Source: Cycas panzhihuaensis
Lineage: Eukaryota; Plantae; Cycadophyta
DNA: 64,000 nt
Direction of reading: 5' to 3'
Assembly: GCA_023213395.1 (NCBI GenBank)
Contig: CM041465.1
Span: 185,759,741 to 185,823,740 of the forward strand
Part shown: one piece after another, positions 15,938-61,524 of the stretch
How the letters are laid out: every line of letters starts with the position of its first letter
Position numbering within the stretch: position 1 is the stretch's first letter
Made by a program: the position numbers and the translations under genes
The notes under the pieces: model-generated
Seen by the model: the letters and a program-made list of their open reading frames with translations, nothing else
Databases searched by the model: none
What the model was told of the DNA's origin: nothing

Positions 15938-16128
15938 TGAGAGGTAATGTTTTATCATTAACTATGTAATTAATGTATGTAATAATGATATGTACCATAT
16001 TAGTAGAGGTTGGTTATATGTCAAGTTATAACGGTTACCAACCCAGTCATGTATTTAAGAAATTCATCGTCTCAATAAAGACGTTGAGTTCTCTTATCAG
16101 CCTTCTGTCTCTTGATTGAAAGTTAATA
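15938..16128 (+). repeat. 3' LTR of family F (~190 bp)
   Basis: Starts TGAGAGG after AAGAGAGGGTGG; host segment A resumes at GAACCCCC (compare 46325); terminal CA appears mutated to TA. Confidence 0.75.
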
Positions 16129-16757
16129 GAACCCCCACCTATTAGGTTAATTTTTATTTTATTTCTCATTCATCTATTTACCCATCAGGTTCTTTGAACT
16201 CTTGCATTGATCATTATATATTTTGATTAGGCGAAACACATTTCATTTATCATTCGATCAAGTGTTCCCTTGTTTAATCCTTTTTCCAATTCATAAAATG
16301 TAGACTCCAATGTAGTCTTAACTCGCACAGGGCATACAAGTTATTTTGCGTGGAAACTAAGAGTATTACATTCCTACATCAATAACCATTTAAAGAGCCT
16401 TTGGCATGCACCCCTGGTCTGTGTTCTTTTACTATTTTTATGATAAACTTATTCCAATAAAAATTTCTAACACTAATATTTAACACTTGGTTAGGAAACA
16501 CTCTATAAGTGCTTTGAAATGGTAGTATTATAGAAACTTTCATTACTTGATGTATGCCATACCTATGAACATAAAGTGTATACTTTTACTTCAAATTTAT
16601 ATAGGAATTAATAGGATTATCTACAAAGCATTTTTTTTCTATAGTTGATGATAAAGAAAATTTATACAAAATCATTTGTAAAATGTGTTGTGAAAAATAA
16701 TTCATGGTGTTTTATATATTTATAAATTTAGATTGTTTTATATAAAGCTTTACATAG
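16129..16757. repeat. Core unit segment A, subtype A2 (partial); carries the empty site for family B
   Basis: Shares diagnostic bases with 46325-46685; AAGCTTTACATAG continues TTTTGC rather than into the B LTR. Confidence 0.88.
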
Positions 16758-18314: not shown

Positions 18315-18580
18315 TTTTTAAGTTATAAGAGAAGATCAATTCTCTTTTTCAATTCATGATTGGACATTAAAATCATTTATAAAGGAGAAAAAACATATCT
18401 CTAGTATTAATAGCAATAACATTATAGCCAATTTAGTGCACTTAGTATAGTATATAGTGAAGAACTAATTTTTAGAATATAATAAGATAGTTGACAAACA
18501 TTAGGGTCAATTGATAATCAAACAAAATGGAATGAGTTTATGGCCACTCTATTTGCTAAAGCACATACATGGTATCATGG
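18315..18580 (+). mobile_element. Fragment of the same old gypsy family as 48590-54151
   Basis: ~265 bp colinear match to 48593-48859. Confidence 0.75.
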
Positions 18581-18746
18581 ATGTTTTTGTTATATCATCC
18601 CTGCCATGCATATGTCTTCCCATGTCATGCATCTATCCTTTTTGCCCTTGTCACACGTTTGCCATTTTTTTTTTATAAAATTTTTAGGGGAGTAAACTCT
18701 GCTTCTGAGTGGAGAGTCATCACCGAAGTGCCTTGAGGGCACCTAT

Positions 18747-19145
18747 CGATGCAAAAATATTCAACAGAAGGTTTGGGTAAGATTTATTTGGTTATATTAA
18801 AAATATTTCGTAAATTATTAGAGAAAGAAAGGAATCTATACTTTAAGTGTAGGGTAAAACTTAAGTCAGGTCTATCGCATGTGCCACTTAGTCGGTTAAT
18901 TATATCATTGGAAATATTAACGGGTTGCCTATAAATTAAGCCTTGTATCATTCTTTTATATATTATCTTGATATATATGTAGAAGATCTACCCAAATTGA
19001 GCCTTATGTGGTGACCAATTCACCTGTGCTTTCTTTAACTTAGTTCTGGTTTATTATTTTACTTGTTTTTCTGTATTATTTTGATATTATAGCTTGATTT
19101 CATATTAGTAGCACATGTTTTACAAATTCTAGATGTTTCTCTTAG
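18747..19145 (+). repeat. Possible partial/solo LTR
   Basis: CTATAAAT followed by TTGTATCATT and a T-rich U5-like tail; no partner copy in the window. Confidence 0.3.
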
Positions 19146-22785
<3,640 letters not shown>

Positions 22786-23170
22786 TGTTACATGCCATTG
22801 CGTCAAAATGTCTGTAGGTGATTTTGATAGGTTGCTAATAGGGTACCTGGAGATGTCTTGACCTCCAACACCCCCCCATGCATGTTGTGTGACCTCTATC
22901 CAGCTAGAGGGTATGCAATCAGCTGCCCAACCTGCCTTTTTTTTTTTGTGCTAAGGGGTACTCACTTGATCACCTAACCTATCTTATTTTGGTGGCAAGG
23001 GGTATGTACTTGGCTACCCAACCTGTGTTTATGACAATAGCAGGCACTGCGTCGGTAGTAGGAGTGGAACCCAAGCCTTAGCTTTGATACCACTTGTTAT
23101 ATGCTATTGCATCAAAATACAAATAGGTGATTCTGATAGGTCACTAACAGGGTGCACAGAGACATCTCAA
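22786..23170 (-). mobile_element. TRIM-like mini LTR element 1 (~85 bp LTRs, non-coding interior)
   Basis: Direct repeats 22786-22870 (TG...CA) and 23095-~23170; reverse PPT CCCCCCC at 22871-22877; reverse PBS GCTTTGATACCA at 23081-23092; three ~45 bp internal repeats. Confidence 0.85.
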
Positions 23171-24996: not shown

Positions 24997-25294
24997 TAAA
25001 AAGAGTGGATCTATTCTTCATCTCCATGCACTAAACACAAAGGCAAACATGAGAGCAAGAGAGATTTGAGAGAAAGAAAGTAGCTCTCACAAAATAGGGA
25101 GGTAAGAATGAATCTCCTCCATTGAGCTTTTACTTTTATATTGAGAGAGGGAGCATTAGAGGTAGGTGAAATGAAATTACACATAATGTACATGAAAGTG
25201 CATTTCACTTAAGTGATCTAATTTAAAGTTCACATAAGACCCTTTTTTGAAATAATCAACTAATGTAATGACCTTATGTCATTAACCCTTTACA
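24997..25294 (-). repeat. 3' LTR of H
   Basis: About 17 substitutions versus the 5' LTR by eye; PPT (CTCCCCCTT on +) at 25297-25305. Confidence 0.95.
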
Positions 25295-32298: not shown

Positions 32299-32596
32299 TG
32301 AAAAGAGTGGATCTATCCTTCATCTCCATGCACTAAACACAAAGGCAAACATGGGAGCAAGAGAGACTTGAGAGAAAGAAAGTAACTCTCACAAAATGGG
32401 GAGGTAAGAATGAATCTCTTCTATTGAGTTTTTACTTTTATATTGAGAGAGGGAGCATTAGAGTTAAGTGAAATAAAATTACACATAATGTACATGAAAG
32501 TGCATTTCACTTAAGTGATCTAATTTAAAGTTCACTTAAGACCCTTTTTCGAAATAATCAACTAATGTAATGACTTTATGTCATTAAACCTTTTCA
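32299..32596 (-). repeat. 5' LTR of H
   Basis: TGAAAAG...CTTTTCA termini; matches 24997-25294. Confidence 0.96.
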
Positions 32597-35571
32597 CTTC
32601 TCTTAATGAAAAGTGGATTGGATAGGCCCCCACTGCCTACCACTTCAAAATATTTGACTCAACATGTTATGCCCATATACTGGATAGAGATAGAAATAAA
32701 CTTTAGTCTACAGCACTTAAAAGCATCTTTATTAGATACCCTATGGATAAGAAAAGGTTCAAGGTTTTTATACCTTCACAACGGAAGGTTATCATCACTA
32801 GAGATGTGGTCTTTACTGAAACAAAAGATCAATTATTATAATTAGGCTACAAAACAGCAAATCGCCATTATTATAATACTACTCAACATGATGTACATAT
32901 TCCAAAATTTGGGAGGGGGAGGAGACGCTCAAGAGTTACTTAAACTATTGGAATCTAACAATAGAGCCATGGAGGATAGTAGCTGTGACTTTCAACCAAT
33001 GAGTACACATCATACACCACCATTTGATAAAAACATAGTTGACAAAGGCAAAGCAGTGGTAGATGGACCACGTTCCCCAAATACGTCAACATCCTCCTCA
33101 ACAAATATGTAAAATGATCCTTTTCAAGATCTAAATGAAGAAAATGCAGTTGGAGAAATGAAGATCTCATTTCCAACTCGAGGTTCTCATGAAGCCCGCT
33201 AACTAAATATGTATATATGACTTGATGAGGTGGGAAAAATTGGTACTCGAAATGCCTATAGAGCCAAGATACAAAAATCACTTTTCATTGAGTTAAAACT
33301 AACAAAATTGCATCTTCCTCTCAATGAAGATCCCCTCTCATACCAAGAAGTTATAAAACACATAGCTTAGAGGAATGTCATAAATAAAGAGTATCAATCT
33401 CTTATAAAAAATAGTACATGGGAGCTCATCAACCTACCACTTAAAAGAAAGATAGTTTAAAACAAATGGATGTACAAAAATAAATACAGATTTGATGGTA
33501 CTCTTAAAAAATACAAGGTGGGGTTGGTAGTAAAGGGATTCACACAAAGGCTAAAGTCTTTGTACCTACAACCAAGTGGCCTATAATTAGAACTCTTATG
33601 GCCTTGGAAGCTTAATAGGGTTGGAAGATTCACTAGCTCAATGTAAAAATTGCATTTCTCAATGGTGATCTTGAAGAAGAAATCTACATGGCTCAGGTTG
33701 AAGGATTTGAGATTACTAGTCTAGAGCATAAGGTGTGTAGGCTCAAAAGGTCCTTATATAGCCTTAAATAAGCCCCTCGTTCTTAGTTCACTAAGTTGTT
33801 AGAAAGAATAAGGTAACTTAGATATGAGGTTTGTGATTACCTGGATATTGATGTAATATTGTTCATCAAAAGCTAAAAGGATAAAGTCACTTATCTCTTG
33901 ATCTTTGTGGATGATATGCTTATAACAGAGAATAGTGAACATGTAATTAGCCAACTAAAGAAGGGCTTAGCTAAAACATTCGAACTGTCTAACCTTATGT
34001 TGATGAAATACTACTTGGGAATTGAAGTCACTCAGAAAGATAGTAAAATCTTTCTTTCTCAAGAAAAGTACATCAACAATCTTCTAACAAAGTTTCGGTT
34101 GGAAGATACTTGAACTATAGCCACTCTAATAGAACCTAATGTCAAACTAGCAACTAATGGTGATGATCGAGAGGTAGACATAATACTTCATATGGAAATT
34201 ATAGGTATTCTCATTTATACTACTAATATAAGACATGATATTACACACTCTATCGATATTCTTGCTCGTTATATGATAAATCCTAAACAAAATCACTTGT
34301 AGGTAGTAGTGCGAGTGTTGAGGTACCTTAGGACAACTAGTAAATATGGTTTATTAAATGAACTCAATTCAAAGTTTAAACTATATACATACATAGACTT
34401 AGATTTTATCGAAGATAAAGACATAGGGAGATCCACATTTAGGTATATAATATTTTTTAGAATAGTATCAATATCATAGAGATCTAGACGGTAGAAGACA
34501 ATTATTGATTCAACTGTCAAAACTAAATATATTACTACTTCTAAGACTAGTAAGGAGGTGATATGGCTTAGGAAATTATTAGAAACATTAAATATTGCCC
34601 AAACAAGTCCTACTAGACTTCATGTAGATAATCAATCAGTAATCCATATGGCCAAAAATCTTGTATTTCATGATCATACCAAACACATAAGTACAAAAGT
34701 CCATATGACTTGAGAGCTAGTTTATAATAGCACAATCCACTTGGAGTACTATCCCATAGCAGATCAAGTGGCTGATATCTTCACTAAACCACTATAAAAG
34801 GTGAAGTTTGAATAGTTCCATAGGCAGCTTAGTCTTCGAGCCTCTATCTCCAATTGATTAGAGGAGATGACAACAAGATCTTCATACTCTATTCCATTCA
34901 TGAAAATCCCTTGTAAACATAAAGAAATAAGAGTAGGCCACTATTTTATCCTATTTATGAAAATCCCTTAAGGGTTGTACTAGTCTTAGAAAATTAGAAC
35001 CTATAGAAATCTAAAAATCCATGGGGGATGACCAAATAATATATGGAGACTCAGTAGATCAAGCTGCACATTTAAGCTACTTGGCTATCAAGATACATCA
35101 AGAAACACCTAGGCTAATTTAATTTAAGAGGCTATAGAACTTAGAAAGTTCATGGGTTTTCATTTCCCATGAGTATTTTCCCATAAAAGTGTCAATATAA
35201 TAATGATACTCAAATAAAGACCTTATAGAATAGATTTTATCATAATGACCTTTTACCATTAAGGAGGGGATTGATAGATATTATGCATCAAGGTCATTAG
35301 ATTAATTATTTGAAGGTGACTTTAGGTTAGTTAAGTCACATAGTTAAATGTAATTTCATTTATATTTAAGTGCAATTTTGGGATCATGTCATTAGGCAGC
35401 AAACTCCTTTGGAAACCCTAATGCACATCCTCTGTAAGGCTGAATGTGAAAGGAAGAGTAATAATTCTCATCTCTTATTTTTGTTCTCAATCTTGTTCTC
35501 TTCATTTTGCTCTTATTATGTGCCATTGATTTAGTGTAGTGAAGTATGATAATTAGATCCTTCGCATAATA
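32597..35571 (+). mobile_element. Copia family I copy 2, 3' part (INT C-half, RT, RH, PPT 35261-35270, 3' LTR 35272-35571)
   Basis: Integrase resumes after the TSD; FVDD in ORF 33898; DQVADIFTKPL at ~34762; colinear with 1-1882. Confidence 0.93.
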
Positions 35572-35576
35572 TAACA

Positions 35577-36680
35577 AACTAGGGTTAGTTCCTTAGTAGG
35601 GGTATAATCATGTAGATGTGTTTTACCTAGTACAACCTATCTATAAAAAGTTATACTTCTAAGTGATTCTAGTAGATGTAAGGGTACGGAAGAGTAAATG
35701 AGTTGACTTTATGCTCATTCTTTAGGAATGTATTATGAAGCTATGGCTAGTTGAGTGGCCTTCTCTAGAGAGACCATAAGGCGCTTTATTTTTTCACTGC
35801 CTATACTATTCAGGATTGTTAAATACTATCTCATGGTTTATCTTGGGATTTATTACTAAGGTTGGAGATGGTGATTCTAACAGGGTTAAGGTTGTATTAC
35901 TAGGGAAGACCACCTAATAATCTTGAATCAGAGGAGTGGATAGGTAGCTTTAATGACTTCAATTTGGCCTTTTCTGCCTTACTATATAAAATAATATCAA
36001 TATGATAGCCTAGTACTAGTACTTTCTTTATAGTGAGTTGAGCTCCCATTTATTAAGTTAATTTTCTTTTTATTTCTCATTCATCTATTTAGCCATCAAG
36101 TTCTTTAAACTCCTACATTAATCATTATATATTTTGATTAGGTGAAACACATTTTATTATCAATCATTTAGTCGCTTTCTTAATTAATCCTTTTTCAAAT
36201 TCATAAAATATAGACTCAAATGTAGTCTTAACTCACACTAGGCATATAGTTTATTTTAGATGGAAACTATGAGTATTACATTTCCACATTAAAACCATTT
36301 AAGGAGCCTTTGGAATAGACCCCTTAATTCAAAAGGAGGTTGGCCTGTGTTCTTTTCCTATTTTTATGATAAACTTATTCCAATAAAATTTTAAAACACT
36401 AATATATGGCACTAGGTTAGGAAACACTCTATAAGTGATTTCAAGTGGCAGTATTGTAGAAAATTTCATTACTTAATGTATGTCATACCTATAAACATAA
36501 AATGTATACTTTTACTTCAAATTTGTATAGGAATTAATAGGATTATCTACAAATGATTTTTTCTATAGTTGATGATAAAAAAATTTATACAAAATCATTT
36601 GCAAAATGTGTTGTGTAAAATAATTCATGGTGTTTTATATATTTATAACTTCACATTGTTTTATATAAAGCTTTATATAA
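35577..36680. repeat. Core unit segment A, subtype A1
   Basis: Colinear with 1888-2991. Confidence 0.92.
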
Positions 36681-39600
36681 TGTGAATGTGGTAGTTGTTT
36701 ATTAAGCTATAGATTAATATTAATGTGGTTTAACTAAGGGTCACAACCCTAATTGGGTGACACCTCTTGGAAGAGTATAATAGCCTTGAGCCCTTGTGTA
36801 TTCTATGTATCAAAATTATTGTGCAATAATAAATGTGATCTAAAAGGACCTTTTGTGGTGGGGTTTTTCCTAAAGGGTTTTACCACATAAATCCTATGTA
36901 CTATGCATCTATATTCTGTGTATATTTTTATTTTCTTACTATGTATAGTTAAAGATTCTACAAATGGGAACATACCTGTATGATTTCATGTTCCTGAACA
37001 TGGTATTAGAGCTATAGGATCCTATATAACTGAAGCCTGGCATTGAGTTGAGTCGTGAGATCACTAGTTTCTAGGTGAAACTGTAAAACCTAAGACTTGT
37101 CTTAAGGGTCCATCATCTGTAGCAACGTGCAAAAGTAGGCACAATAGATCAATAGTAGTTGAAATAGTTAAAATCACTATTCAACAGAGCATAAGGGCCT
37201 ATTAAAGTCAATAATCAAGCATAAAGACCACAATTATGGTGTGAGTTGGCTCATTGGGGGCCATTAGAAGTGGGTTGATGATCTATAAGGTTGATTCAAG
37301 CTAGCAGAGCATGTACTGGTAGTGATTTGATGACTATGAGGACAACCATCTATATATATATATATATATATAAGTGAGTTATTTACTCATCTAAAACATT
37401 ATAAAATTAAAAAAGAAGTAAGTTTTTTTCAGTATGACTTACATCTAGTCTATATAAGGGAGGGATTGGAGCTTATTTAGAATGTTTTCAATCCTCTATA
37501 CTAAGATTAGATTGAGAATATAGTAGTGCATAGTATTAACTACTAAAATTTTGAGTCTTAATATCCTTATATGAGAGAAAGGCCCCCTTATTTTAGTCGT
37601 ATGCATAAACATAGCCCGAATTTGCATGTTAAGAGGTGTTTGGGCAAGTTCTAGTGTTTGTTGGGCATGTTTAGGAGGTGGCTAGGCCTTGTACACACTG
37701 TTTACTAGCCATATTAAAGCTGTTTATACCCATAGCCTTCTTTATTGGTAACTTGAAGGACATAATCTATGTATGTAGTTTAAAAACTATTATCCACATG
37801 ACTGGGCTCTTGTATGAAGTGGATGGTCTTAGATTTATCCATATACCAAATGTATAATAAGTGTAGGTTTGTGGTTTAGAGTGTTGGTCTGTTCATAGCA
37901 CGTAGGCAAAAATTGAATTGCGACAACCGCGTCTCTTAGAATCAGGTAGTATGACTTATTGTATCATGTTTTTGATGATATTTTACTAAGTTAAGACCTT
38001 AATAATATTAGTAAGATGATATAATGAAAAAATAAAGCATGTGGGTTATATGATATGGTGCAGTTGTTCATATAAAGTTGTAATTGTTGAAATATATCCT
38101 TTAGTATATTCTCTTTATAATTGAACATTATAAAAGGCCCATAGACCATTGAAAAATCATATTATTTTATAATGTATTATATTTCAGGACTCCTTGAGCC
38201 ATTTTGAGTGTGGATTGAGGAGATTTATTTTTGTTGTTACTTGGAGATCGTGTAATTCTGCTGTATGGAGTTGTCCCCATTCTTGGAGCACCTTTTTTAA
38301 GTGACTAAAGGATCATTTTTTATACTTTTGAGTTCATTTATAGGCATTTTGAAGCCATTTATGAGGGAAGAATAATCAATGACTCATTTAACCTATGTAT
38401 AGTTGCTGTTTGGTGCCCTCCAGAGTGTACCCTTGAGCTAGAGGAGGACATAGGGGTGTATTTTTTATCCAAAAGACAATAATTTTGGTGTTATTTGACA
38501 CATATTGAGATATGTTTCAATAGATGGAGTGCCTTATATCTAAAGTTATCTTTAATGGTAACAATTTTAATGAGTGGAAGGCTAATATGGAGCTTATTCT
38601 GATGGTGAATTAACTCTAGAGTATCACTGAGGCTAAAGTGGATGTGATTCCACTAGACCATAAAGAGCATGTTCATCTCGAAGAGAAGAAATTTATGGCA
38701 CTAGGCTAGGGAGCTTTAATTCACAATCTAGATGAACTAGACAAAATATGGATAAAACTGTATGATTTATTTGAGAAGAAGAAGAGAAATAGACGTTTTA
38801 CTCTAATGTTGGAGTTACTCAATTCATGTGTGGAAGATCAGAATAACATCAACTCCTACCTAAATAAGATTATGTATTTAAAGAATAATCTAGAAAAACT
38901 AAAGTAGAATTCGATCGATGATACGTTATTATTCACAATAATCATGTCAAAGCTACCAACTGCATTTGCTAATTTTAAGAACATTTATGGTACAGTGATG
39001 GAGGCAGAAACTTTTGATGGGTTTAAAAACCTAATTCTAGCAGAAGATTCTAAGCTTAAATATCATGGTATGCTTGGAGGTTCAGAATCAAGTCAGGCCC
39101 TAGCCATGAAGACTCAGAGGAAGGAGGCCGCTAAGGAAGAGAAGATCACATAGAGGTTAGGAGAAAATTCACAAGATAAGAAGAAGTTCAATGGAAAATA
39201 CAATTACTACAAGAAGGATGGTCACTAGAAAAAAGAACTATTGGTTTAAAAGATGTTATAAGCATAAATTATGCTAGGATGATAAAGGAAAGAATATTGC
39301 TACTCATTACGTCAGACCACAGACTTTATCAGTCGAGTGAGATCAGAGAGATTATTGGGTACTTGACTCTAGAGTATATAAGCATATCTCCTACTAAAAG
39401 TACAACTTTGATATAATGAATAAAAATCAGAGCAGTGCTGAAATTATCCTTGGAGATGCTTATGTTTTTCTAATGTAAGGTATTAGAAGAGTATCCATTA
39501 TAGGAGGTAAGTTTACCAGGCTATACTATGTACCCAAGATGCAGTTGAACCTTCTTTTAGCCTAAAAAATTTGTAAACAAGGCATGAAGGTAGAGATTTA

Positions 39601-40613
39601 TAATGATAAATGCCTAATTAAGGATCTAAAGTAAAACTTCGTTATCAATGCTATTGGGAAAGTCAGGGACAAGTTCTGGGTATTTGAGAAATTTTAATCT
39701 TAGAAGAAGTCTTATGCCTTTGTTTCCAACATTAATAACGTGAGTAAACTTTGGCATAATCGCCTAGGACACCTTAATTATAGGAGTATTACACTACTAA
39801 AGAGGTTGAAGATGGTGGATGGACTGCCATCAATTTCCTGCTTAGATGGTATTTATAGTATGTGTATGTATGACAAGCACCACTGCTACCCTTTTACTCA
39901 GGAGAATGCCTAGAGAGCCAAGGAGAAGTTAGAGCTTGTACATTCAGATATAATTGGTCCTCTCCTAAACCCTTCTATATCAGGAGCTTGTTATACCCTT
40001 GTGTTTGTAGATGATTACACTAGGAAGGCCTAGGTCTACTTTCTTAAAAATAAGTTAGATATATTTAATTGCTTCTGTGACTGGAAAGTAATGGTAGAAA
40101 ATGAAAGTGATAAAAAAGATTAAGTCATTAAGAAGTGACAATGGCAAGGAATATGACAACCATATGTTTAATTAGTTTTACCACGATCATGGTATAAAGA
40201 GGGAATTTATAGTCTTGTATACCCCACAATATAATGGAGTTGCTAAATAAAAGAACCATACCATGATAGTGATGGTAAGGTATATGGTACACGCTAAAAA
40301 CTTGCCACTGATGTTTTGGATAGAGGTTATGATGACTACTATTTATATTTTGAACTCGGTACCCACTCAGGCAGTTTGCAACATGACCCTTGAAGAGAAA
40401 TGGATTAGTCAGAAGCCTGTCATTACCCATTTAAGAACCTTTGGATGTATTAGATACGCCCACATCCTAGATGATACTCATAAGAAGTTGGATTAGAAGA
40501 GTCTGAAGTGCATATTCATGGGGGTATGACAATGAGAATAAAGGCTACAGACTATGGGATCAATAGGGGAAGAAGATTGTGGTTAGTTAGGATGTAAAAT
40601 TTGATGAATTATA
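36681..40613 (+). mobile_element. Copia family B copy 2 (LTR 36681-37000, PBS 37001-37012, gag-PR-INT), same truncation as copy 1
   Basis: Colinear with 2992-6945; ORFs 38944 and 40263 (HLRTFGC). Confidence 0.92.
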
Positions 40614-42692
40614 AGTAAAATTTGTATCTTTTCCATTTGAGTCATATCGCAATAGAGTCTAATTGCCTTACACTGAGAGAGAGTGGCATTGAACTCATCA
40701 TTCTAAGTACACTTCTCTTCCCCACTCTTAATCTAATTCTTTTTTTTAGAAACAAAAAAGAAGGAAACAAAAGAGAAAAGAAGAAATAAAAAAGAGAGAA
40801 AGTAGATATTTTTCTTTAGGCATATTACTTGTTCTCTTTCTCTTTTATGCATAAAAAATAAGAAAAAAAATATATATAAACATAAAAATTCCCTTAATAG
40901 AAAGGAAGCTCCCATCTTTTTTCTTTCCTATGTATGTGCATCACATTAGCACCTTCTAAAGCAGACCTTACATAGTTTCTTGTTTTTTTCTGAAAGCCTG
41001 AGCAAAGGAAGGGATTGTATAGTTGTGAGTCTTTGAACCTATAGGGTAATATTGCATTTCTAGCTAGGGTAGCTATCTGTATTCATTGAATAGGAAAAAC
41101 ATATAGATGCATGTGGGTGTGTGTTTTCTTTTATAGCATGTCATAGACTCCCACTATAAAAAATTTAAACCATTTACATGCATATATAAACACTTGTGTT
41201 GCACTAGTCTAGCCATTTTTACATCATTTAAGAGAATAATACACATCACACCCATGTTTAAGAGGTACAGAAGTGCCTTGAACAAGGCTTCGATTCACTT
41301 TCACCCTATGCACTCACCATCCATGCCCTAGGCTTGTGTTTCTAAGTGTGTTACTTGTGTTCCACCCTTGCTCACATATATTTCATATGGTTTTTAAATG
41401 GGACTTAGCCCATGGTTTCAATAAAATCAATGGGATATCCTTAGTATTAGCCATGAATTAAATTAGACCTACATTTGGGCACTATAAATATTTGACCAAA
41501 TGCAACCCTAAAAATTTTGAAACTTCAAAAATTAGTACCACAAAGTTTAGCATGGTGTTGTGAAGAATTTTCATAGTACCATGAAGTACTAGTAAACACT
41601 TACTTGTTAGGCAAAAAATAGAGTAGAAACAACATTGAGCAATACAAAAGCCAAAAAAGAAAGTGGAACAATCCATAAAAGGAGCATAATACAGGGAAAT
41701 CTAAATAAAATGGGACAAAACACATGAAAACAAAGGCAACATAATAGAATAGGATGAAGAAGAACACAAGCAAAGTGGCAAAGAAGCAAACGAAGCCTTA
41801 TATAGTTACTAAGTGACCTTTCTTAACCTAGTAAACTTAAAGGGATGATGAAAATAACCATCAACTATGGTCAAAATCATCATTAGCAAAAGGGATGACC
41901 AACTCATCCAAAAATCAATAAGCAAACTCAGGCATACACTCACATGCAACTAATCTAAGTTATATTAAGCTATGATAAGTAAAGAGTGAGTATGTACCTT
42001 CACTTACCTGTTGTCATTGTGTCCATATCATTCCTGAATTATAGGAAATAGTTAGTTTTTGTTCCTTATTTTTGTTCCATATTTTGATGGTGATGGGAAT
42101 TTCAGTATGACAAGATCTTCATCACTTCACATTCTTCAAAGATTTTGTTTTAGATTTTCAACATTTCAAATATTGACTTTTCAGTCTTTTAAATTATCAC
42201 ATTATACTTTTAGTGGATATCTTCAACATTAATAGGATTTGATGCCTAGGGCATTATGTTGATGCAAGAGCTTGTTTCTTTGGTGTAAGTTAGGCTCCTA
42301 GGTGCTTACAAGTGTTTTTTCCCCTTCAAAATATCATTATATAACTTTATAAAGTCCCCTTTATAAGGGTTATGTATATCAATTAATAATTAGGGTTTAT
42401 TAATATTTAATTAAAGGAGTTGATTTAAGAGATTCATTAGTTCATTTTTCAACAAATTTATTGAATTTGCCCTCTTATTCATTGTATAAATATATCATTC
42501 CATCAATAAAATAGATTGGACATTGGTCTTAGGAAATTTAGACTTGGGTTTAGACATAACCAATTCATATTGGTGTATAATTTCTCCATTTTGGCCCTTC
42601 TTTCATCTTCTTTTAGTCTACCTTTATCCTCTTATTTATTTAAAGGATTAAGATGTCCTTTTGGAGGCATGTTTCTAAGATGTATATGATCA
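40614..42692. repeat. Unclassified block X, copy 2
   Basis: Colinear with 6946-9034. Confidence 0.75.
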
Positions 42693-45600
42693 TTCTTTAG
42701 AGAAAGTTTGAGTGAAGATAACCTTAAATGGAGTAGTTCTAGGTATGTAAATAAATCTCCTCACTTAATATAAATCAATAAAATCAAATATTTTAATATG
42801 CTTTTCTTATAATAGCATTCTTCTTAACACCAATATTTTCTCAAGACAACATGCAATAGTCATCCAAATATACATCAACTCCATGACCTATTTAATTAGG
42901 TAAAAAATTTTCCCAATAGGTTTGACATTCAATCCCAATTTATTGTTCTACTAATAAGCTATCTTGAATTTTATTCTATCAATAAAATCATTATGTATTA
43001 ATTATTATTTAGGTATTCATAGTCCTTTCACCAGTTCCCTCTCATAAATAATCAATTTATGCTTTATCAAGAAACTCATATTGAGACAGGTACCTTTTGT
43101 TTGAGTTCTTAGTAATTAAGGAGAAATTTGTGATAGTTACTATTTAATTAACTTCAATGATCATATGTATTTGCTTTGGATCTAGCACTAGTTACTAATC
43201 TTTGGATGCGACATATTTGGTAAGAGTTATTTGATTTCATTGAGTGGTGTAAAACATTAGTTATTTGGATTGATGTTGCTCTATATTCATTTCCTCTTTT
43301 TTTTCTTTTCTTTGCCATAATCTAATAAATCCTTTTCCATGCCACTTAATGACTGGTATTTATAAACTAATTTCCAATGGCATTTAAAGGTGTTATTTGA
43401 TTCTTAATGTAATCATCTATTAATAAGCATATTAGTCTTGACACATAATAGGACTAATCTATCATGCTAATCATGTTTTCAAACCATTTTATACATAATT
43501 TCATTCTTGAATTATGCCTCATATGTGTTGATATAGTCACCTTATATAAGTTTATAAACCCTGATCAATTAGAGTACTATAACAACAACTTTGAATTTAA
43601 CTCTATTTGCATCAAAAGTTACTTAGTTCTCTTTCTCGACACTCATGAAAATACAACATAGCCTTTCAATGCCTAAATAAATAAATACTAATTACTCATT
43701 TAGATTTCTTGACACCTCCTCAAATAATGTGATATCACACCACGAAGGCGTTATCTTTTAACACATAACCACCCTTTTCTTAATAGAAATGTATCAATAT
43801 TAAAACTTGATATTTGGCACTATATGATTGCCCATTTTTATCTCCAAGATGTTTATGAAATATAGATAGTAGCTGCCTTATATTAAGAATGTGCTTGTTT
43901 TTGAAATTATCACAGACAATAAAGTTTTTCTTGGTAAAATTAATATGCATCTTTTAAAACATATATATTTGATATATTGTTTGCTGAAAATAACTTTGAT
44001 TCATATGTTTCATTATTTTTTCATTGCCATATTAGTTTGTCAAATAGAGGTGTCTTTCTTTTGGTAATTGAGTAACCTAAGCTTATATTTACATAATCAC
44101 ATTTTAATAAAATAAATTGAAGTGTTTTTAAATATTTTTTAATGTTTATAGGTATGAAAATAAGAAAATTTTACTGTTGTGATTTAATTTTAATAGGTGG
44201 GTTTAAGTATAGTGGTTAGGAAATATAGAGCTAAACATTAACAAATAGAAAGTCATGGGTTCAACTCTTATTAATTCACCTTTCACAAAGTACACACATA
44301 ATCTAGGATAATTCATTTTTTTAATACCTTTTCATTTTTCATTTTAATCTTTATATTATATATTTTAAACAATGGCATTTCACCAAATTACAAGTATAAA
44401 CTACAACACTCTAATTGATTTAGAGACATCATCTAAACCATTAAATATATACATTTTTACACACTTAAGATTGTATTTATTTAAAGGCAAAAGTAAGCAC
44501 TTTGGGATATTTTGTAAGTCATCTTATTAGGTATAAAATAACAACTTTCAAACAAACAAAACATATTCTTTTCTTGACCTATCATTATAACAAAATATTG
44601 TCTATTTTTGAATCAAGTTTTGATGGATTTTAGGCTCTTAAACACATGAATATAATCACTTAAAAATGCATTCATTTCAAAGAGAAAATTATTCATCCAT
44701 GTGTTGTTTAGAAAAAACTAAATGACCTTATTTTAACACATAATACCCTACATTTTAATCAACTATTGATAAACATTTAATAAACAAACAGATTAAAATC
44801 ACATTTACTTGAAAGTTAAAAAGTGAACTTTGAAGGTGTTTCAAAATAATCATTAAATTCCATACTGTTGATCAGGTTCTTTTGGACTTATAAAATGCAC
44901 ATACATGTACCTCTAAAATTACATCTATTTCAAATCATGAATGAATCATGTTCATGTGCTTTATGATTAGTGTTAAAATGACATATTCTTACACCTCTAT
45001 GTGACCTCATAATGACAAGAAGTTGAGCCTCATTTCTAATAAATGAAATCTAATTAAAATTGAATAAATAAGGTTTTTTTGTTAAGTCATTGTTTCTCTT
45101 GTTATTCATACCATTTAAAGTTGCATGCTTTAAGTATATCAAAATTTATAATAATTGAGTACTCACCAAGTTATCTTTGTAAAACTTCACAAGTAGGTAT
45201 CTTTTCTAATCTACATAGAAGTAATTACGAGATATTAAAGCAACATTAATATGCATATAGGTTTGGAGAATTAAATGCATTTATATTTTGTTTTGTTGGA
45301 ATAAAGTAAACTAAGAGGGAAAGGGAATTTGTTGTATTTACATGTAGTTTGGTTTCATTTTTTTTTTTATTAACTTAGAAAACCATTAATTAAATTAAAA
45401 AAATATTACTCTATTTAACTATATTTGCTTATAGGAACATTGAGGGTTTAAATTATATTTTTATTTTGATTTTAGACTAACTCCTATAAGAGCTAAGGTG
45501 TACATTGTTAAAATAAAAATTATAAAAATATATACAAAATAAGAATAAAAAATTTTATTTTTCCATCATAATCACACACATGATAAATTTAGGATCAAAT

Positions 45601-46685
45601 AAATCTTTGTTGTCACATTTTTCCTTCATTTGTATGTATTGTTCAGCCAACATCTTAGATTAGGACTTTTGTCGCACTAAAAATTTTGAAACGAGGCATC
45701 ATTGTTGAACTATTTTTACTTTGTCAATTCATCATCATCCCTTAAGATCCTTAGGTAAGGTGTTTGTAGATTCTAAACCCTATTTCATTGCTCTCACCAA
45801 GTCATTACTAAACTAAGACCCTCCATGAAAATATGGACCTATAATATGCCAAGTCCTCATCAAGCTAGGGTTAGTTCCTTCGTAGGGATATAATCATGTA
45901 GATGTGCTTTACTTACTAGAACCTATCCATAAAAACTTATACTATAAAGTGATTTTGGTAGATGTAAGGGTAATAAAAAGTAAGTAGGTTGATCCTATGC
46001 TCATTCTTTAGGAATGTGTCATGAAGTTATAGCTAGTTGAGTGGCCTTCTTTAAAGAGACCCTAGGGGACTTTATTGTTCCATTGTCTATACTATTTAGG
46101 ATTACTCAATACATCTTATGGTTTACCTTGGAATTCATTACCAAGGTTGGAGATGGTGATTCTAATAGGGTTAAGGTTGTATTACTAAGAGAGACCACAT
46201 AATAATCTTGGATCAGAGGAGTGGATTGGTAACTTTAACAACTTCAGTTTGGTATTTTCTACCTTACTATATAAAATAATATCAATATGATAACCTAGTA
46301 CTAGAACTTTCTTTATAGTGAGATGAACCCCCAACTATTAGGTTAATTTATATTTTATTTCTCATTCATCTATTTGCCCATCAGGTTTTTTGAACTCTTG
46401 CATTGATCATTATATATTTTAATTAGATGAAACACATTTTATTTGTCATTTGATCAAACGTTCCCTTGTTTAATTCTTTTTCTAATTCGTAAAATGTAGA
46501 CTCCAATGTGTTCTTAACTCACATAGGGCATATAGATTATTTTAGGTGGAAACTAAGAGTATTACATTCCTACATCAATAACCATTTAAAAATACTTTAG
46601 CATGCACCCCTTAATTCAAAAGGGGATTGGTCTATATTCTTTTCCTACTTTTATAATAAACATGTTCCAATAAATGTTTCTAACA
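42693..46685. repeat. Uninterrupted core unit C-D-A (~4 kb); contains empty sites for F and for the TRIM/I/H block
   Basis: D-A junction GCCAAGTCCT-CATCA-AGCTAGGG is contiguous at 45848-45870; homology ends at 46685. Confidence 0.9.
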
Positions 46686-54151: not shown

Positions 54152-54918
54152 AAGATATAAAAAGAAAAAAAAAAGATAAAAAAAAGATAAAAAATAATAA
54201 TAAAAGAACAAAAGGGGAAAATAAAAAATAAAAATTAGAGAATTAACTTACCTTTCCTATAATACATATAGAATGTGTGGTGTTATGGACCCCACAATTA
54301 GTAGATAGTTAAGATAAGTTTAATGGTAAATAAGCACACGTTAGTTAAAATAAGATTTGAAAAGTCAAATTCAAAGAGGCAAGAACTATGAAAAGTTATG
54401 AAATACTTGTCATTGCAAATATAATCAAATTATCATCTATATTTCTAAAGAAATAATTAAATTTTTTCAAGCTTCCATCTCAATTTTCTTTCAGTTTCAT
54501 TCCAATTTCATCAATGTCTTAGTATCATTTGGCCTATTTTTGTACTTCTTACTTGAGTATCTCTATTATTATGGTCTTCAACATATTGTTTTAAGATAAT
54601 AGCATCACATCTACTAGAAGTAATATCAGATCTGTTTGGTTCTAGGCACTTTAGCACTAGTTGGGAAGACATCTTATTATTATTTGCTATATTTTCCACT
54701 CTTTATCATGTGTTGTTTATGACTATAGAATTGTTTTCCATTTGTGTTTTGTTTCCTCCTTTTATATCTATCTTGTATGGATTTTTTATTCTTTATTTTT
54801 GCTTTTGTTTCCATCTTGTCATCCATCATATTCTTATGACTCTACTTAGTTCTTATTGTCCTTATATTTTTCCCCATTTGCATATTGCCATCTATATCAT
54901 CCTCTTTATCATTGTTTT

Positions 54919-55216
54919 TGTTGTGACCTAAGGTAGTTATAAGAATTAATAAAATTATTTATTAAAAGTCGGTCTCAATATTATTAGGGTATAAGTACCT
55001 TATTAGAAGTTGGTTTTATTATTAGGCAGTCAGTTTTTTTAAAGATGGTTAAATTTGACACCTATAAAAAGAGAATTATTATTAATTTATAAATCATCTT
55101 TTACAAGTTAATCTATTTGAGGTGTTTTAACCATTTGGCTCTTAAGAGCTTCTATTCAACTTTCATTTCAGCTTTCTTTGTGTTTATAGAAGTAGATAAA
55201 ATTTAAGATCACTTCA
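54919..55216 (+). repeat. 5' LTR of G
   Basis: TG...CA followed by the PBS; diverged direct repeat of 60248-60543. Confidence 0.92.
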
Positions 55217-58200
55217 AGTGGTATCAAAGCCTCATTTTTAGTGCACCAAGGATTTACATTTTTGGGAGTATAAATGAAAGAATTTAAAAAAAGTAACCAT
55301 GAATTAAGTTGATTGGGACTATTCTACAAATTTTAAGCAGATATACTATAAGTTTTAGAGTGAAATTATGAAAATTATAGGGAATTAGTTTTAGCTTACT
55401 ATTGATCATTATATTTAGGGCCTAAGATCTACTATACTATAACTTTAAATGACTATAACTTTGGCTACAGGTGTCTGATTGACCTTAATTTTATTTTGAA
55501 TCTCTATGTCTCAATGTATGCTTTCTATTTTAAGTGGTTCCAAATCTATTAGAAATCTATTAGATATCAAGGAAAGAAATTATCTATATTTTGGTAAGAG
55601 GTACTATTATCGTCCCCAAGAGTATAATCACAACCTAGCTTAAAAAGACCATAACTTCTTCTACATGGATCAAATTTTTATTTCATCTAAAGCATTAGAA
55701 TTATAATTTAAGAGTCCATATTTTAAGCTATTAGAGAGTTTATAATTGAGGTGGAAAATATAAAAGTAGTAGAAGAACTACAAAGCTTCACTTAGGATGC
55801 TAGAAACTTGAGATAGTTAAATACCTAAAAGAATGGCCTCAGAATTTTGTTCCTTTAAGATGAAAATTGAGAGGAACATGGAAATAGTACATCAAAATCA
55901 AGAAAAGACCAACATCAAAATGGCTAGAATGACCAAGATGATATAATTTTTTACAATTGCTTATAAAGACTTTGGAAGGGATGACTATCTAGGGGATCCC
56001 AACAATAGTAATAAATATGAAGAGGATCAAAAAGAAAATAAAAGATGCTATGATGATCAAAGGGACCATTAAATAAATGATGGCTTTCGATAACAATTTT
56101 TTTGCTATAATATTTAGATACTAACTTACTTACAGGATAATAAAATTGAAGCAGATGAATGACTAGTAAAAATAGAAAATACCATTTATGTGTTACATAT
56201 TAGTGATGCCAAAGATCAAATCAACTTTGCTATAGACCACCTTAAAGGGCCTACGTATACATGGGATACATTATGGAAAAGGGAAGGAAAAACCCATAAT
56301 TTCAAACATTATATAGAAGCCTTTAAAGAACAAACAGAAAATAATTAGAGTGATCCTTATCCTATCCAAATAGTGCATTACTGTTAAAAGAGATGATCTA
56401 TCAAAGAGTATAAAAATGAATTTGAAAAACTCTACTTAAACGCTAGAATTACTTATAAGGAATCACTCCCATATTGCATTAATAATCTATGACTTGATAT
56501 TGGTGAAGATGTTTATTATTTCACCCCAAGCACCTTAACTTTAATTATTAGAATGCCAATATAAATCAAATCTTGTCTCCAAAATACTAAGAAGGGATTC
56601 CAAATAGCATCCTATCAGCCAATACATAAGTTAACCTAACTAAGTATCCAAGGATTCTAGAAATGTCAAAATAGTAACTATAGTACATATAAGCCAACAT
56701 GAGTAACACAAAGGGCTAAAGAGATAGAAAGAGCTAAGGAAAGAACACTTGCCATATGTCATAGTTGTAAAAAACCCTGGGTCAAGGGAAATAAGTATGT
56801 TAATAGAAAACTATATAGTGCTAAAGTAGATATTAAAGATGAAGAAATAGAACAAGGACTAGAGGAAGATTAAGAGCAAGAAGAAATAAACTAATTAGAG
56901 GAGTTGGATGATGGCTAGCCTATGGTCTCCTTATCAGCCATGACATGGATAACACCATATAATACCATCAAACATTTTGGGCACCTTAAAAAAGAGAAGG
57001 TAATAATCCTCATCGATCTAGGTTGCACCCATAAATTCATTGCTATATAAAAGGCCAGTAGGTTAGGGCTATATATGGAGAAAAAAGAGTTTAGAATATC
57101 ACTTTTATACCAGGGTGAAGTTAAACACCAATGATTACATATAGGAAATTTTAATTTTTTTGCATACTATTATACCTTTGATATTAAGAGTTTTGATATA
57201 GCCTTAGGAGTTGAATGGATAGGGATGTTAGGAACTTATGCTTTAAACCGTGATGAAAACTTCATTAGATTTATTTGGGAGGGGAAGAACTAACAATTAA
57301 ATGGTATTAATATCCTAAAATCCAAGGTTATATCTATAAAGAGGATGGGAAAACTACTTCACAAAGGGCATGACAAGTTCATTGCAATGCTATTCTCCAT
57401 ACAAGTAGAGACCCTTAAAAGTGAACTACCACTAGAATAAGAGAAGGAAATAAATGAGCTTGTATACCACTATTGAGATGTCTTCTAAGAGTTACCAAGG
57501 ACTCCACCACCAAGTTGTAATATAGATCATATCATTGAGTTGGAATTAGGGAGGGGACCTACTATCATTTGTCCATATTAGTATAGGGACAGGAATAAGA
57601 CAAAAATAGAGAGGCTTATGCAAGATTTATTGGATTAAGGTGCCATACTACCAAGTAAGAGCCCTTATACAACACTAATTATCTTACATAGGAAAAAGTA
57701 TTGGTCTTTTTGAATGTGCGTTGATTATATAGCCTTAAATAGGATAACACTAAAGAACAAATACCACATTCCATACATGGATAATATTATAGATGAACTA
57801 CATAGGGCTAGATATTTTTCCAAAATTTGATTTACATTCTAGATACCATCAAATACTGATCTAACCTTAAGACATAGAGAAAACAATTTTTTAAACACAC
57901 CTATGACTATATGAGTTTAAGGTGATGCCATTTGGGCTAACTAATGTTCCAAAAACATTCCAAGTAAACATAAACTATGTATTTATGCCTTTTCTAAGAA
58001 GGTTTGTCATAGTCTTCTTTGATAATATTCTTATCTATAGTAAGACCTAGTAGGAATATTTGGAACAATCCAAAAAACATTTTAATTCCTTTAAGATAAT
58101 CAATTTTTTACAAAGAGATCAAAGTATTATTTTAGAAGAAGAACCCTTAAGTATCTCAAGCATATCATTTTAGAAGATGGAATTAAAATTAATCTTATAA

Positions 58201-60247
58201 AAATAATGGCCATTCTCAATTGGTCCATACCAAAAAATATGTTAAAACTTAGGGGATTTCTGGGAATCACAGGATACTACTAAAAGTTGATTAAAGGATA
58301 TGTTGATATATCAAGAACACTTACTGACCTTACCAAGAAAGGATAACTTTAACAGGGATAAGAATGCTGATTCAAGTTTTAAGAAATTAAAAGAAGCCAT
58401 TACCATGACATCAATCTTGGCCATGCCTAATTTCTCCCAACTATTTATAGTAGAATGCGATGCATTAGGCATAAGAGTAGGTGATCTCTACCATAAAATA
58501 GTTAACCTATTGCATATAAAAGTCAGAAATTAAATCTATGGGAAAGATCCAAGAGTGTATATGATAAGAAAATGTTAGTCATTCTATATGCCTTAGTAAA
58601 ATGAAGATAGTACTTATTAGGAATAAAATTTATTATTAAGATAGACTGCCATAGCCTAAAGTACTTCTTAACACAATAAAACTTATTTGAGGAGAAACAA
58701 AAATGGTCCAGTAAGATCCAAGACTTTAACTTTAAAATCTCATATAAGAAAAGAAAAGAGAACATTATCATAGATGCATTATCAAGAAAAATTAAAGATG
58801 TTAAATACTCTACCATGGTAATAGTTGAGCTTATATGGATTGATGAATTACACCAAGAATACTCACAAGATAAAGAAATGAAGGCCATCATAGACAAAAG
58901 TCCTAAAGAACTAGAAGAGACTCCTTAGACAAAAATGGGTAGTACCCTTATTTATAAGAATAAGATCTACTTACCTTAAAAACCATAGTTTAAAGAGACA
59001 ATTCTTAAAGATCATCATGATTCACCCATAGTTGGACATTTAAGGTTCCTTAAGACCTATGAGAGGATAAGGAGATCATTTTACTAGAGAGGGATGAAGG
59101 CCAATATAAAAAAGTTTGTTTTAGAATATGAGACTTATAGAGGCAAAAAGTAGAATAAGTATAAACTCCAGGGATGTTATAACCCCTAGATTAACTTAAA
59201 CAAAAATGGGAGAAGAAATTTCTATGGACATTATTTATAGTAGTCAATCAATTGATAAAATATGTACATTTTATTTCTATTCAATCATCTTATAAGGCAT
59301 TTCAAATAGTTGAAATATTCATGGAGAACATCCATAGATTACATGAGTTTCCTAAAAGAAAATCACTAATAGGGATCTTAAATTTACAAGCCATTTTTAG
59401 AATGACTTATTCAAATTAATTGGGACCTAACTCAACATAAATATAGTATACCATCCCCAAATAATTGGATAAATTAAAGTAGTCAACAAAGGTTTGGAAA
59501 CATACCTATGCTGTTATGTTAGAGATAACCAATCTACATGGGTAAAATTGATTCACTTGTCTGAATATTAGTATAACACTAATTACACACATCTATTAAA
59601 ATAATACCTTTCATGACATTATATGGTTATTTGCCCCTACAATAGTGGATTATATTCAAAATATAATAAAAACCCCAATGATAGAGGAATTAGTAAGATA
59701 ATTTAAAATAATTTAAGAAGAACTCAAGAAAAACTATGACATTATAAGGAATTAAATAAAATAATAGATAGACTAAAACATAATTGAAAGATAATTTAAG
59801 GAGGGAGATTGGGTTTATGTAAAACTAAAACTATATAAATAAAACTTCCTCAAATAAAAAAGTAAATGTAAACTAGCACCAAGATTTTATGGCCCATACA
59901 AATTTGGAGAAGAGTTGAAGAAGTAACTTATGCCCTTGATTTTCTAGAAGGAAGTAGGATTTATGATGTCTTTCATGTGTCTAACCTTGAAGAAAAGGTA
60001 GAATATCACATAGGGATAACAACTAAACTACCCATGATAGATGAGAAAGGAATACTTGTGATGGAACCTAAAGCCATTGTGGATACCCGCTAGTGTAAAA
60101 TTAGATCATAAAACATTATAAAATACTTGATTAAATGGAAAGGGGTACCATGATAAGAGGCAACTTAGGAAAATTAATAATTAATCTTAGATCACCCATC
60201 ATTACCTATACTTTATGGGCAAAGTGAGTTTTCTGAGGAAAGGGACT

Positions 60248-60543
60248 TGTTGTGACCCAAGGCAATTATAGGAATTGATAAAATTATTTGATAGAAGTTA
60301 GTCTCAAATATTAATAGGATATAGGTATCTTGTTAGAAGTTGGCTTTATTATTAGGAAGTTGATTTTATTAAAGATGGTTAAAATTTACACCTATAGATA
60401 GAGAACTATTATTCACTTATAAATCATCTTTTGTGAGTAAATCCATTTGGGGTCTTTTGACCATTTGGTTATTAAGAGCTTTTATTTAGCTTTCATTTTA
60501 GTTTTCTTTATCTTTGTGGAAAATCCAATTTAGAATCACTTCA
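60248..60543 (+). repeat. 3' LTR of G
   Basis: Follows the PPT; TG...CA. Confidence 0.92.
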
Positions 60544-60882
60544 ATCTTCCACCCACATTTTCCCTAAATGTATCCTCTCTATTATTAACAGCCATTCCTT
60601 CCCTTCCATATATATCTCTATTCTACATTCCATCCTCACTTTGAGTAACTTCACTCTCTTCTTTTTCCTTCATGACTTTTATTACTACTATACCTAAACT
60701 ACAATGACATATAATTTTCCATAAATATAAAAGATAAATAAACCTAAGAGTGTCTAAGATCAAATTGAATTATTCTTTCTTATTCAAAATTTAAATTATT
60801 TTTCTTACCAATTTCTTTCGTGGCATTACAAACCCTTGCAAGGTTTGAATTCCTTACATTAGCTTTAAATGGTTAAATATGT

Positions 60883-61195
60883 TGTTATACACTTGGGTAG
60901 TCTTCACTAATACCTCGAGGTTTTAGTGCAACAGTTTGTTACAAGTGGTATCAGAGCCAAGACCTAAGTTCAAATCCTATAAGGGGCATGCCATATACAA
61001 GGGTGGAAGGGTGACATGCCAAATGTCATTGATGTATAAAATGTCATCATAGTCAGGGCCTATAGGACACATGAATGCTAGTGAAAGTGGGACTAGGTAG
61101 GACTAGCCCATTTGACCTGGGAGGAGGTAATGGTCTACTTGGTGGAGGGCCCTCTTCACTAAAACCTCAAGGTTTTGGTATAATGGTTTGTTAAA
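60883..61195 (+). mobile_element. TRIM-like mini LTR element 2 (~310 bp)
   Basis: 43 bp direct repeat 60901-60943 / 61153-61195; PBS TGGTATCAGAGCC 60946-60958; PPT GGGAGGAGG 61119-61127 then TG at 61131; left boundary uncertain. Confidence 0.78.
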
Positions 61196-61524
61196 TGCAT
61201 AGTCACATTATGAATGATAACTTAATTTTAATAAAAAAACTTAGTTTAAATATTTAATATTTATTAAAGCATATTGAAATCACTTTTAAGACACCCTTAG
61301 TTGAGATCATATATTAAAAAAGGCCAATATTATTTTAGCATGCTAAGATGTAAATTTTACCTTTTAAAATTAATTTTGGGGTTGTCATTAATTTCTCTAT
61401 TATTTCAAAGTAGTATATTACTAGAAATATTTACAATAACTAAGTGAGAGACCATTCCCATATCCCTAAATTTTAAATTAGTTAATCTTCATTAAAAAAT
61501 CAATGGTCATGATAAATTTGTGGT

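Follow-up and report, generated by a model that had tools for sequence, protein, structure and literature searches.

The window, a stretch of 64,000 nucleotides of Cycas panzhihuaensis DNA, is AT-rich and repeat-rich, holds decayed Copia fragments, and contains at 60883..61195 a short element designated TRIM 2. With 313 bp, TRIM 2 is below 1 kb in length and has no open reading frame of at least 150 aa, and its layout of LTR, PBS, polypurine tract and LTR (the tracts being candidates) is unlike that of a SINE, which has no LTRs and carries a poly(A) or simple-repeat tail. Its features are as follows.

60883..61195, forward strand: TRIM 2, a decayed copy of a repeated non-coding LTR element, judged from the sequence and related contigs
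60883..60943, forward strand: surviving 3' portion of the 5' LTR, with its CA end; family similarity begins at 60883
60885-60890, forward strand: TATA-like TTATAC within the 5' LTR remnant
60912..60921, forward strand: palindrome of 10 nt, ACCTCGAGGT, beginning 12 nt upstream of the A box's first T, where R is predicted to start
60921..60924, forward strand: T4 run that shares its first letter with the palindrome and its last with the A box
60924..60934, forward strand: A-box-like TAGTGCAACAG, preceded by TTT, its first T being the fourth T of T4
60946..60957, forward strand: PBS for initiator tRNA-Met, directly after the 5' LTR
60958..60967, forward strand: 10-nt spacer CAAGACCTAA between PBS and B box (7-13 nt in other families)
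60968..60977, forward strand: interior B-box-like word GTTCAAATCC, starting 44 nt from the A-box T
60999..61011, forward strand: candidate polypurine tract 1; several contigs start at 61009-61012, with a depth step
61119..61127, forward strand: candidate polypurine tract 2, from the sequence
61164..61176, forward strand: 3' palindrome copy ACCTCAAGGT (one decay change) with T4; predicted 3' end of the RNA
61176..61186, forward strand: 3' LTR A box, TGGTATAATGG, not followed by a B box

All motif coordinates and the spacing that an earlier note on this DNA had given for TRIM 2 were borne out base for base: 9 nt separate the A box from the CA at 60943, AG follows, and then comes the PBS, whose 12-mer is the Met PBS as listed in a section of PMC13570524. 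The B box occurs once per element, 24 nt beyond the LTR end. The left edge of the LTR, at 61012 or at about 61127, is not settled. Candidate tract 1 would place the start of the 3' LTR at TGACA (61012), giving an LTR of ~184 bp, and a sister subfamily likewise has a purine run followed by TGAC; candidate tract 2 would start the 3' LTR at ~61127, giving an LTR of ~68 bp, and 6 of the 7 letters of its GGTAATG agree with the reverse complement of CATTACA, with which LTRs of the family end. The two LTRs match each other over 41 nt only (83%, blastn) and carry different U3 types (60883-60900 vs 61128-61152), both of which exist as families in contigs, and the 3' LTR terminates in AA where related contigs read CA. 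These features suggest that the copy is probably truncated or recombined, with the 5' LTR affected, and the lack of any target-site duplication detectable by eye fits such an event; none was seen by eye for the second element of the window, TRIM 1, either, and TG...CA ends were found for neither copy.

An old LTR element at 54918-60544, which ends ~340 bp before TRIM 2, has LTRs (54918-55217 and 60247-60544) matching at 81%, a Met PBS at 55219 and an RT/RNase H fragment, and it lacks the A/B module. A 10.5-kb segment with a Copia gag is duplicated at 86% identity (887-11336 and 34598-44987, with a PBS at 3346 and 37001), and parts of it recur at 16121-22785 and 45861-46685. Direct repeats of 296 bp with 95% identity (24999-25294 and 32301-32596), with a PBS at 32296-32285 on the minus strand, mark a younger LTR element of 7.6 kb. 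An (AT)n microsatellite of several hundred bases lies at 20270-21000, and a 23-nt match at 27397-27419 was inspected and left as unrelated.

TRIM 1, the comparison element, lies on the minus strand and is composed as follows.

22786..23167, minus strand: TRIM 1, with a decayed 5' LTR
22870-22786, minus strand: 3' LTR, 85 bp, adjoined by a G7 tract at 22877-22871
23061..23128, minus strand: module, from the palindrome place to the B-like box
23128-23119, minus strand: palindrome place, decayed in the window and self-complementary in the majority letters of related contigs
23117-23114, minus strand: T4, followed by the A box at 23114-23104
23092-23081, minus strand: PBS, with the spacing of TRIM 2
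23070-23061, minus strand: B-like box GTTCCACTCC, with C at the expected purine position

The claim that the two elements share an identical module spacing and differ elsewhere proved correct. The alignment found by blastn covers 59 nt only (74.6%, E 4e-5), starting with T4 and closing with the B box, and the likeness is limited to this motif block rather than uniform: without gaps, 42 of 57 positions in the block are identical (11 transitions, 4 transversions), compared with 8 of 42 upstream and 13 of 40 downstream. By segment, identity amounts to 11/14 in TTT plus A box, 5/9 in the following 9 nt, 13/14 in AG plus PBS, 5/10 in the spacer and 8/10 in the B box. All five spacer changes are transitions, as the earlier note had observed, and this points to common descent with methylation decay. 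The note had also argued from conservation to function, and here the result is divided: the block has outlived its flanks between the two TRIMs, but spacer differences by transition alone are not functional evidence by themselves. Similarly, the motif exceeds its flanks clearly between TRIM 1 and TRIM 2 but barely within families, where conservation is 0.80-0.93 for the A box and 0.75-0.92 for other LTR positions.

Relatives of TRIM 2 were sought by aligning contigs to 60780-61300; the contigs came from four DNA runs, each covered to about one half. At least 1007-2028 contigs per run match the region, and their flanks are mixed behind 61193, indicating a dispersed multi-copy family. Among the variants listed, G is present at 60925 in 69-80% of the depth, T at 60929 in ~99%, G at 60933 in 47-78% and G at 60967 in 30-96%; the family is closer to the tRNA A and B boxes than the decayed window copy. 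Variation consists mostly of transitions, a trait that, together with the Met PBS and the AT-rich, repeat-rich window with its Copia fragments, suggests a large plant genome. A sister form has an 11-nt spacer (a loose contig end at 60961). A 35- to 160-fold drop in depth right after the B box was rejected as evidence, as loose ends show that the window copy diverged there. TRIM 1 is rarer, with 39-73 matching contigs per run, and its deviant box positions, among them A at the third position of the A box, show no variant of at least 15% among its aligned contigs. In these related contigs its B-like box likewise has no variant of at least 15%, whereas 7 of the 10 spacer positions vary; the box has no CG or CHG sites and would thus mutate at a lower rate anyway. 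In the same contigs the self-complementary word is placed two bases further upstream than in other families.

Metagenome contigs were scanned once for PBS-N7..13-GTTCRADTC, a pattern from which the A box was absent, yielding 115 loci, a count that gives no B-box frequency among TRIMs because the B box is set by the pattern. Clustering by the sequence behind the B box assigned 95 of the 115 loci to six short plant TRIM families (FA 26, FB 24, FC 21, FE 9, FF 8 and FG 7 loci), many loci being repeats of the same genomic copy and FE being essentially one or two copies; the counts given below were made after merging identical junctions and skipping loci with less than 45-60 nt upstream. A further 14 loci (FD) belong to a long autonomous Gypsy element with gag, protease and RT, two (FH) to a TRIM with a B-like word, and four are singletons lacking the layout. 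Complete copies in the scanned families are mostly ~250-400 bp long, a crude test found TSD-like 5-bp repeats at 11 of 29 sibling loci, and TRIM 1 and TRIM 2 cluster apart from all of these families. T4 and an A-box-like word at the LTR end, neither of which had been searched for, are present in all six short families with at least seven loci. The suggestion that TRIM 1 and TRIM 2 represent a class rather than a pair is thus upheld, with six more plant TRIM families carrying the layout. Regarding autonomous partners, the parallel is partial: the FD Gypsy shares a B-like word, but has no A box and no palindrome with T4, and FH resembles it in both respects. In FD (L039, L059 and 12 more loci) the word stands 9 nt behind the PBS, just before the start of gag.

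Other arrangements were seen among the scanned loci. L068 and L076 represent a 500-bp tandem TRIM with a 180-bp LTR, 47% GC and a tRNA-like spacer plus B box behind the PBS, in which no T4, palindrome or A box was found, and L048:1-330 is an array of ~65-nt units consisting of LTR end and PBS, with the interior absent.

Degenerate boxes might also turn up beside the ubiquitous Met PBS by chance or through ascertainment. By itself the B-box pattern shows no enrichment across the window (5 matches vs 2.4 expected), a looser PBS plus B-box pattern gave 25 mostly unrelated matches in viral contigs, read as mostly chance hits in non-LTR DNA, and the singletons of the metagenome scan (4 of 115) have no layout. 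Yet the A box, T4 and palindrome were outside the search and recur at the same offset in six families, which largely refutes this explanation and makes it very improbable for the module as a whole. A pattern of T4, A box and PBS with the B box left free had 0 matches in genome and viral contig collections, both poor in plant DNA.

The A box was scored at eight informative positions, using a consensus that agrees with the one in excerpts of PMC10886601. Counting distinct junctions, and with denominators that include junctions with a foreign LTR upstream, perfect scores of 8/8 occur in FE (5/5), FA (5/12), FC (5/17) and FG (1/4) and never in FB (0/17), FF (0/7) or FD (0/10), while 7/8 is reached by 11 of 17 FB and 3 of 7 FF junctions (chance 12-14%); shuffled upstream DNA scores 8 in 0.5-1% and 7 in 11-21%. 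Among 15 PBS-like sites that lack a B box, the three scoring 8 are FG's own LTR ends, one scores 7, and the remaining 11 score 4-6; these 11 include the window's four other PBS sites, which are followed by no B box and preceded by no good A box.

The spacing had been regarded as conserved base for base, and this has to be given up, since the PBS-to-B spacer measures 7, 10, 11, 12 or 13 nt. What recurs is the A-to-B distance, 44-45 or 54-57 nt: from the A-box T to the B-box G it is 44 nt in TRIM 1, TRIM 2, FE (5/5) and FC (11/15), 45 nt in FG (2/2), 54-55 nt in FA and 55-57 nt in FF and FB. The PBS shifts while the distance stays at 44-45 nt (25+12+7 in FC and FE, 23+12+10 in FG, 22+12+10 in TRIM 1 and TRIM 2), and N9-N2-PBS-N10 is one case of this looser rule. 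The two distance classes differ by 11 nt, about one helical turn, to which we give no weight because each class may be a single clade. In FA, FB and FF the spacer resembles a tRNA variable loop plus the 5' strand of the T-stem (compare the Helenus-1_SMo LTR). No tRNA gene was predicted in TRIM 2 by ARAGORN (0), Rfam returned no tRNA in TRIM 2 or 14 short sibling loci and no 5S to E 10, and the tRNA fold or cloverleaf is kept in no family, with the T-stem broken in every one, as would be expected if the boxes act as DNA.

All six families, and TRIM 2 with them, have a self-complementary word at -12 to -3 relative to the A box. The modal words of the six families are GGCTATAGCT, AGCTTAAGCT, ACTTCGGAGT, AGTTCGGACT, AGCTATAGCT and ACCTGTGGGT, the final T of the palindrome being the first T of T4. 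When 55 offsets were compared, this one came first in five families, FC being the exception with a second place. Full pairing was found in 60 of 88 LTR copies compared with 59 of 6453 background windows. Copies were admitted at 19/28 or more identity to a family probe, and since the palindrome is part of the probe, within-family pairing counts are conditional on that choice. Across 78 rows 90% of the cells pair, against 69 ± 1.5% in shuffled rows (0/500) and 24-70% in slid-structure controls, values inflated by relatedness, as the tests and shuffles ignore kinship and the families, probably of one origin, are not independent. Three of the five pairs have changed on both sides between families and are thus compensatory (G-C/C-G, C-G/U-A and four types at the central pair), and departures from pairing in the modal words are of the G-U type; pair changes of this kind would be hard to obtain without selection for symmetry. 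A copy-level count of G-U vs A-C (79 vs 20) is not independent, and its P value was disregarded.

As a lone hairpin the palindrome has a predicted energy of 0 to -0.5 kcal/mol, compared with -8 to -17 kcal/mol for a duplex with a second copy (-0.5 and -17.3 kcal/mol, respectively, for TRIM 2). Of 33 predicted RNA units, 25 make at least 8 of the 10 end pairs, the mean falling to 0-6 with the 5' word shuffled, and the predicted TRIM 2 unit (60912-61176) folds with paired ends (z -2.1). We consider it quite probable that the palindrome acts at the RNA level. Decay has spared T4 in 79 of the 88 LTR copies from the six scanned families, and no block is better conserved in any of them. A T4 occurs in the interior of 14 of 50 units, compared with an A4 in 41 of 50, and in the interior of neither window element; FF opposes this scarcity, since 5 of its 7 units have a T4 in the interior, and retroelements commonly have A-rich strands.

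The module is real, shared and selected, its layout recurring in eight families. We favor, with some reservation, the reading that it is a split tRNA-type Pol III promoter, complete at the 5' LTR only, from which these TRIMs would be transcribed by Pol III. With an A box at each LTR 3' end and a B box just behind the PBS, the full pair would exist at the 5' LTR only, whereas solo and 3' LTRs, having no B box, would be silent. TFIIIC would bind both boxes across the LTR-PBS junction, and Pol III would start ~12 nt before the A box, at the palindrome, which is ~25-30 nt past a TATA-like word in four families. The polymerase would pass the first T4, a weak terminator, copy the PBS, interior and U3, and stop at the T4 of the 3' LTR, giving an RNA of ~200-270 nt. 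The R repeat would comprise ~13 nt and, being self-complementary, would let the 5' and 3' ends pair as a 10-bp panhandle that keeps them together for minus-strand transfer.

The caveat of the earlier note, that the T4 run before the A box could act as a terminator, is real, and the covarying palindrome beside it is a possible answer. The duplex would lie directly before the 3' T4 and be absent before the 5' T4, so that termination would be boosted on the second passage. This conditional termination, in which pairing strengthens the 3' T4 only, is a tentative model; more plainly, both T4 runs may just be leaky, which would suit tandem arrays too. In yeast Pol III assays T4 is weak, and termination there is stimulated when an RNA hairpin forms immediately upstream or at a distance of 7 nt, according to portions of 10.1101/2021.08.27.457903. 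Against duplex-assisted termination, the 3' half of the palindrome would still be inside the polymerase when T4 is reached, and against the Pol III model in general, a T4 ~10-13 nt past the predicted start could cause abortive transcription. The drifted boxes of TRIM 1, the A boxes below 8/8 in FB and FF, the weak within-family conservation of the A box and the B-like words of FD and FH, which have no A box as a partner, weigh against Pol III as well.

Plant tRNA genes have internal A and B boxes, an optional TATA up to 50 nt upstream and T runs of at least four (PMC11700998, in part). TATA-like words are located at -41/-42 in FB (15/18) and FF (9/11), at -36/-37 in FC (16/28) and at -39 in TRIM 2, and were not found in FA (1/16), FE or FG. 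A TATA word at -37 to -41 suits Pol II equally well, and we therefore weighed a Pol II element with RNA-level signals, in which transcription would depend on a U3 TATA or a host gene, the palindrome would signal dimerization or packaging, and the B-like word would offer the T-arm of the primer tRNA a second contact or be the site that a helper recognizes. In Ty1, extra boxes serve as further contacts with the primer tRNA. The TATA-like words in FB, FF and FC speak for such an element, as do the tolerance of G-U, which implies RNA pairing with no Pol III required, and the B-like word behind the PBS of the autonomous FD Gypsy. In sections of PMC3281118, the plant TRIM SMART has an LTR TATA motif and a frequent location in introns and UTRs, its promoter is left open, and the FRetro64 interior is 96% like that of SMART. 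However, it would leave unexplained the A box, the invariant T4 and the tRNA-like distance that the two boxes keep while the PBS shifts; the FA, FB and FF spacers are like the tRNA variable loop and unlike its complement, and according to the same sections of PMC3281118 a polyadenylation or termination signal was looked for in vain in the SMART LTR. Taken with its joint assignments for the palindrome and the B-like word, the Pol II reading is unlikely, though it is the strongest competitor of Pol III transcription.

Alternatively, an ancestral TRIM may have captured tRNA or SINE pieces that were once used and are now kept by descent, the T4 near the start having since disabled Pol III. Such a history would account for the weak excess of conservation within families, the drifted boxes of TRIM 1, SMART and FF, and the transition-only differences between the TRIM 1 and TRIM 2 spacers. 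It fits poorly with the persistence of boxes, T4 and palindrome symmetry between families whose flank similarity is gone, with contigs related to TRIM 2 that fit the A box better than the window copy, and with SMART copies that retain the module and have 95-99% identical LTRs; we regard it as improbable. Returning to Pol III transcription, we offer only as a speculative extension that a widespread lineage of plant mini-retrotransposons, SMART among them, has built a Pol III unit from the LTR-PBS junction, with a promoter confined to the 5' LTR, R consisting of the 10-nt palindrome and a U-tail, a conditional T4 terminator and clamped ends.

A Copia-type helper likely supplies Gag, RT and integrase. 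About 10 of 65 distinct junctions join a TRIM interior to a foreign LTR-like end (17 are listed, 6-7 of which are by eye decayed cognate LTRs). In L094 a PBS-interior-LTR unit, an FG copy, lies between a foreign LTR end and a second PBS with a Copia-type gag, and passages of PMC3281118 report a Copia element whose interior is 96% like the SMART interior; together, these point to Copia helpers and recombination at the PBS. The region L094:3950-5600 looks as if a TRIM unit had entered another element at its PBS. A TRIM interior with its 3' LTR behind a foreign LTR-like end and PBS is also seen in L093, L121, L100, L061, L105, L137, L055, L062, L086 and L064.

One of the scanned families, FB, matches SMART/FRetro129 (Gao 2012, PMC3281118, in part), with 82-85-bp LTRs and a length of ~280 bp; PARE tags 20 and 79 of its Table S2 span the spacer and B box. 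The published grass SMART thus carries the same module. The rice PARE tags identify SMART and are uninformative on Pol III ends, as evidence for which they were rejected. TRIM 1 and TRIM 2 are not SMART: there is no blastn link outside the module, the box distance is 44 nt instead of 57 nt, and at the LTR end the best match to FB is 20/34 identical, the module alone being common. Pol III and tRNA have 0 occurrences in the portions of the SMART text covered (PMC3281118), which leave the promoter open, and 'polymerase III' or 'pol III' is absent from the corresponding passages of SMART, Gao 2016, the retrozyme, Wukong and sugar-beet papers, as is 'palindrom' from those of the sugar-beet and Cassandra-evolution texts. 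The supplements of PMC4717578 and PMC13570524, as far as available, held no TRIM element sequences. In searches of openly available full texts, Helenus/Ajax and Cassandra were the only TRIMs of Pol III type found.

How the genomic RNA of the shortest plant TRIMs is synthesized is a question left open by the SMART paper (PMC3281118, in part). If the Pol III reading is true, the range of Pol III-driven LTR elements, so far Cassandra and a single lycophyte Helenus, would come to include several plant families, and LTR-only screens would have overlooked TRIMs with a split promoter for this very reason. It would give exact predictions, namely an RNA start at the A of the palindrome, an end in the 3' T4, dependence on the interior B box and compensatory rescue, and would supply a simple signature for TRIM classification as well as a natural system in which to test Pol III termination assisted by an RNA duplex.

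Among known systems, tRNA-derived SINEs are short non-coding retroelements with A and B boxes at tRNA spacing. TRIM 2 differs from them in its LTRs, PBS and polypurine tract, in the 5-bp TSDs of its siblings and in having no poly(A) tail, all indicating LTR-type mobilization. Cassandra, the 5S-type TRIMp3, is likewise a plant TRIM with a Met PBS, Pol III signals, tandem arrays and self-complementary LTR RNA (PMC10886601, PMC7215508 and 10.1101/2023.07.14.548913, each in part), and its R is very short, 18 nt being reported in an excerpt of PMC10886601 compared with ~13 nt predicted for the scanned TRIMs. In contrast to TRIM 2, it has 5S homology and a type 1 promoter (5S A/C box) wholly within the LTR.

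Helenus, a TRIMp3 (Kojima 2024, PMC10886601, in part), is closest in kind, being a short non-coding LTR element with PBS and PPT and with tRNA-type A and B boxes without a working tRNA, whose use of Pol III is itself only deduced in that text. In the intact tRNA-derived LTR of Helenus-1_SMo the A-to-B distance, counted from the sequence in PMC10886601, is 44 nt, as in TRIM 2. Helenus, however, has both boxes inside each LTR, was found by LTR search and has Selaginella as its sole plant in the sections concerned, whereas in TRIM 2 the B box is interior, the LTR end and PBS take the place of the anticodon arm, and a palindrome with T4 precedes the A box. TRIM 2 is accordingly not a member of Helenus, but by its putative Pol III promoter motifs of small-RNA-gene type it fits TRIMp3, to which it adds a new feature, the palindrome 12 nt before the A box that ends in T4 and covaries between families.
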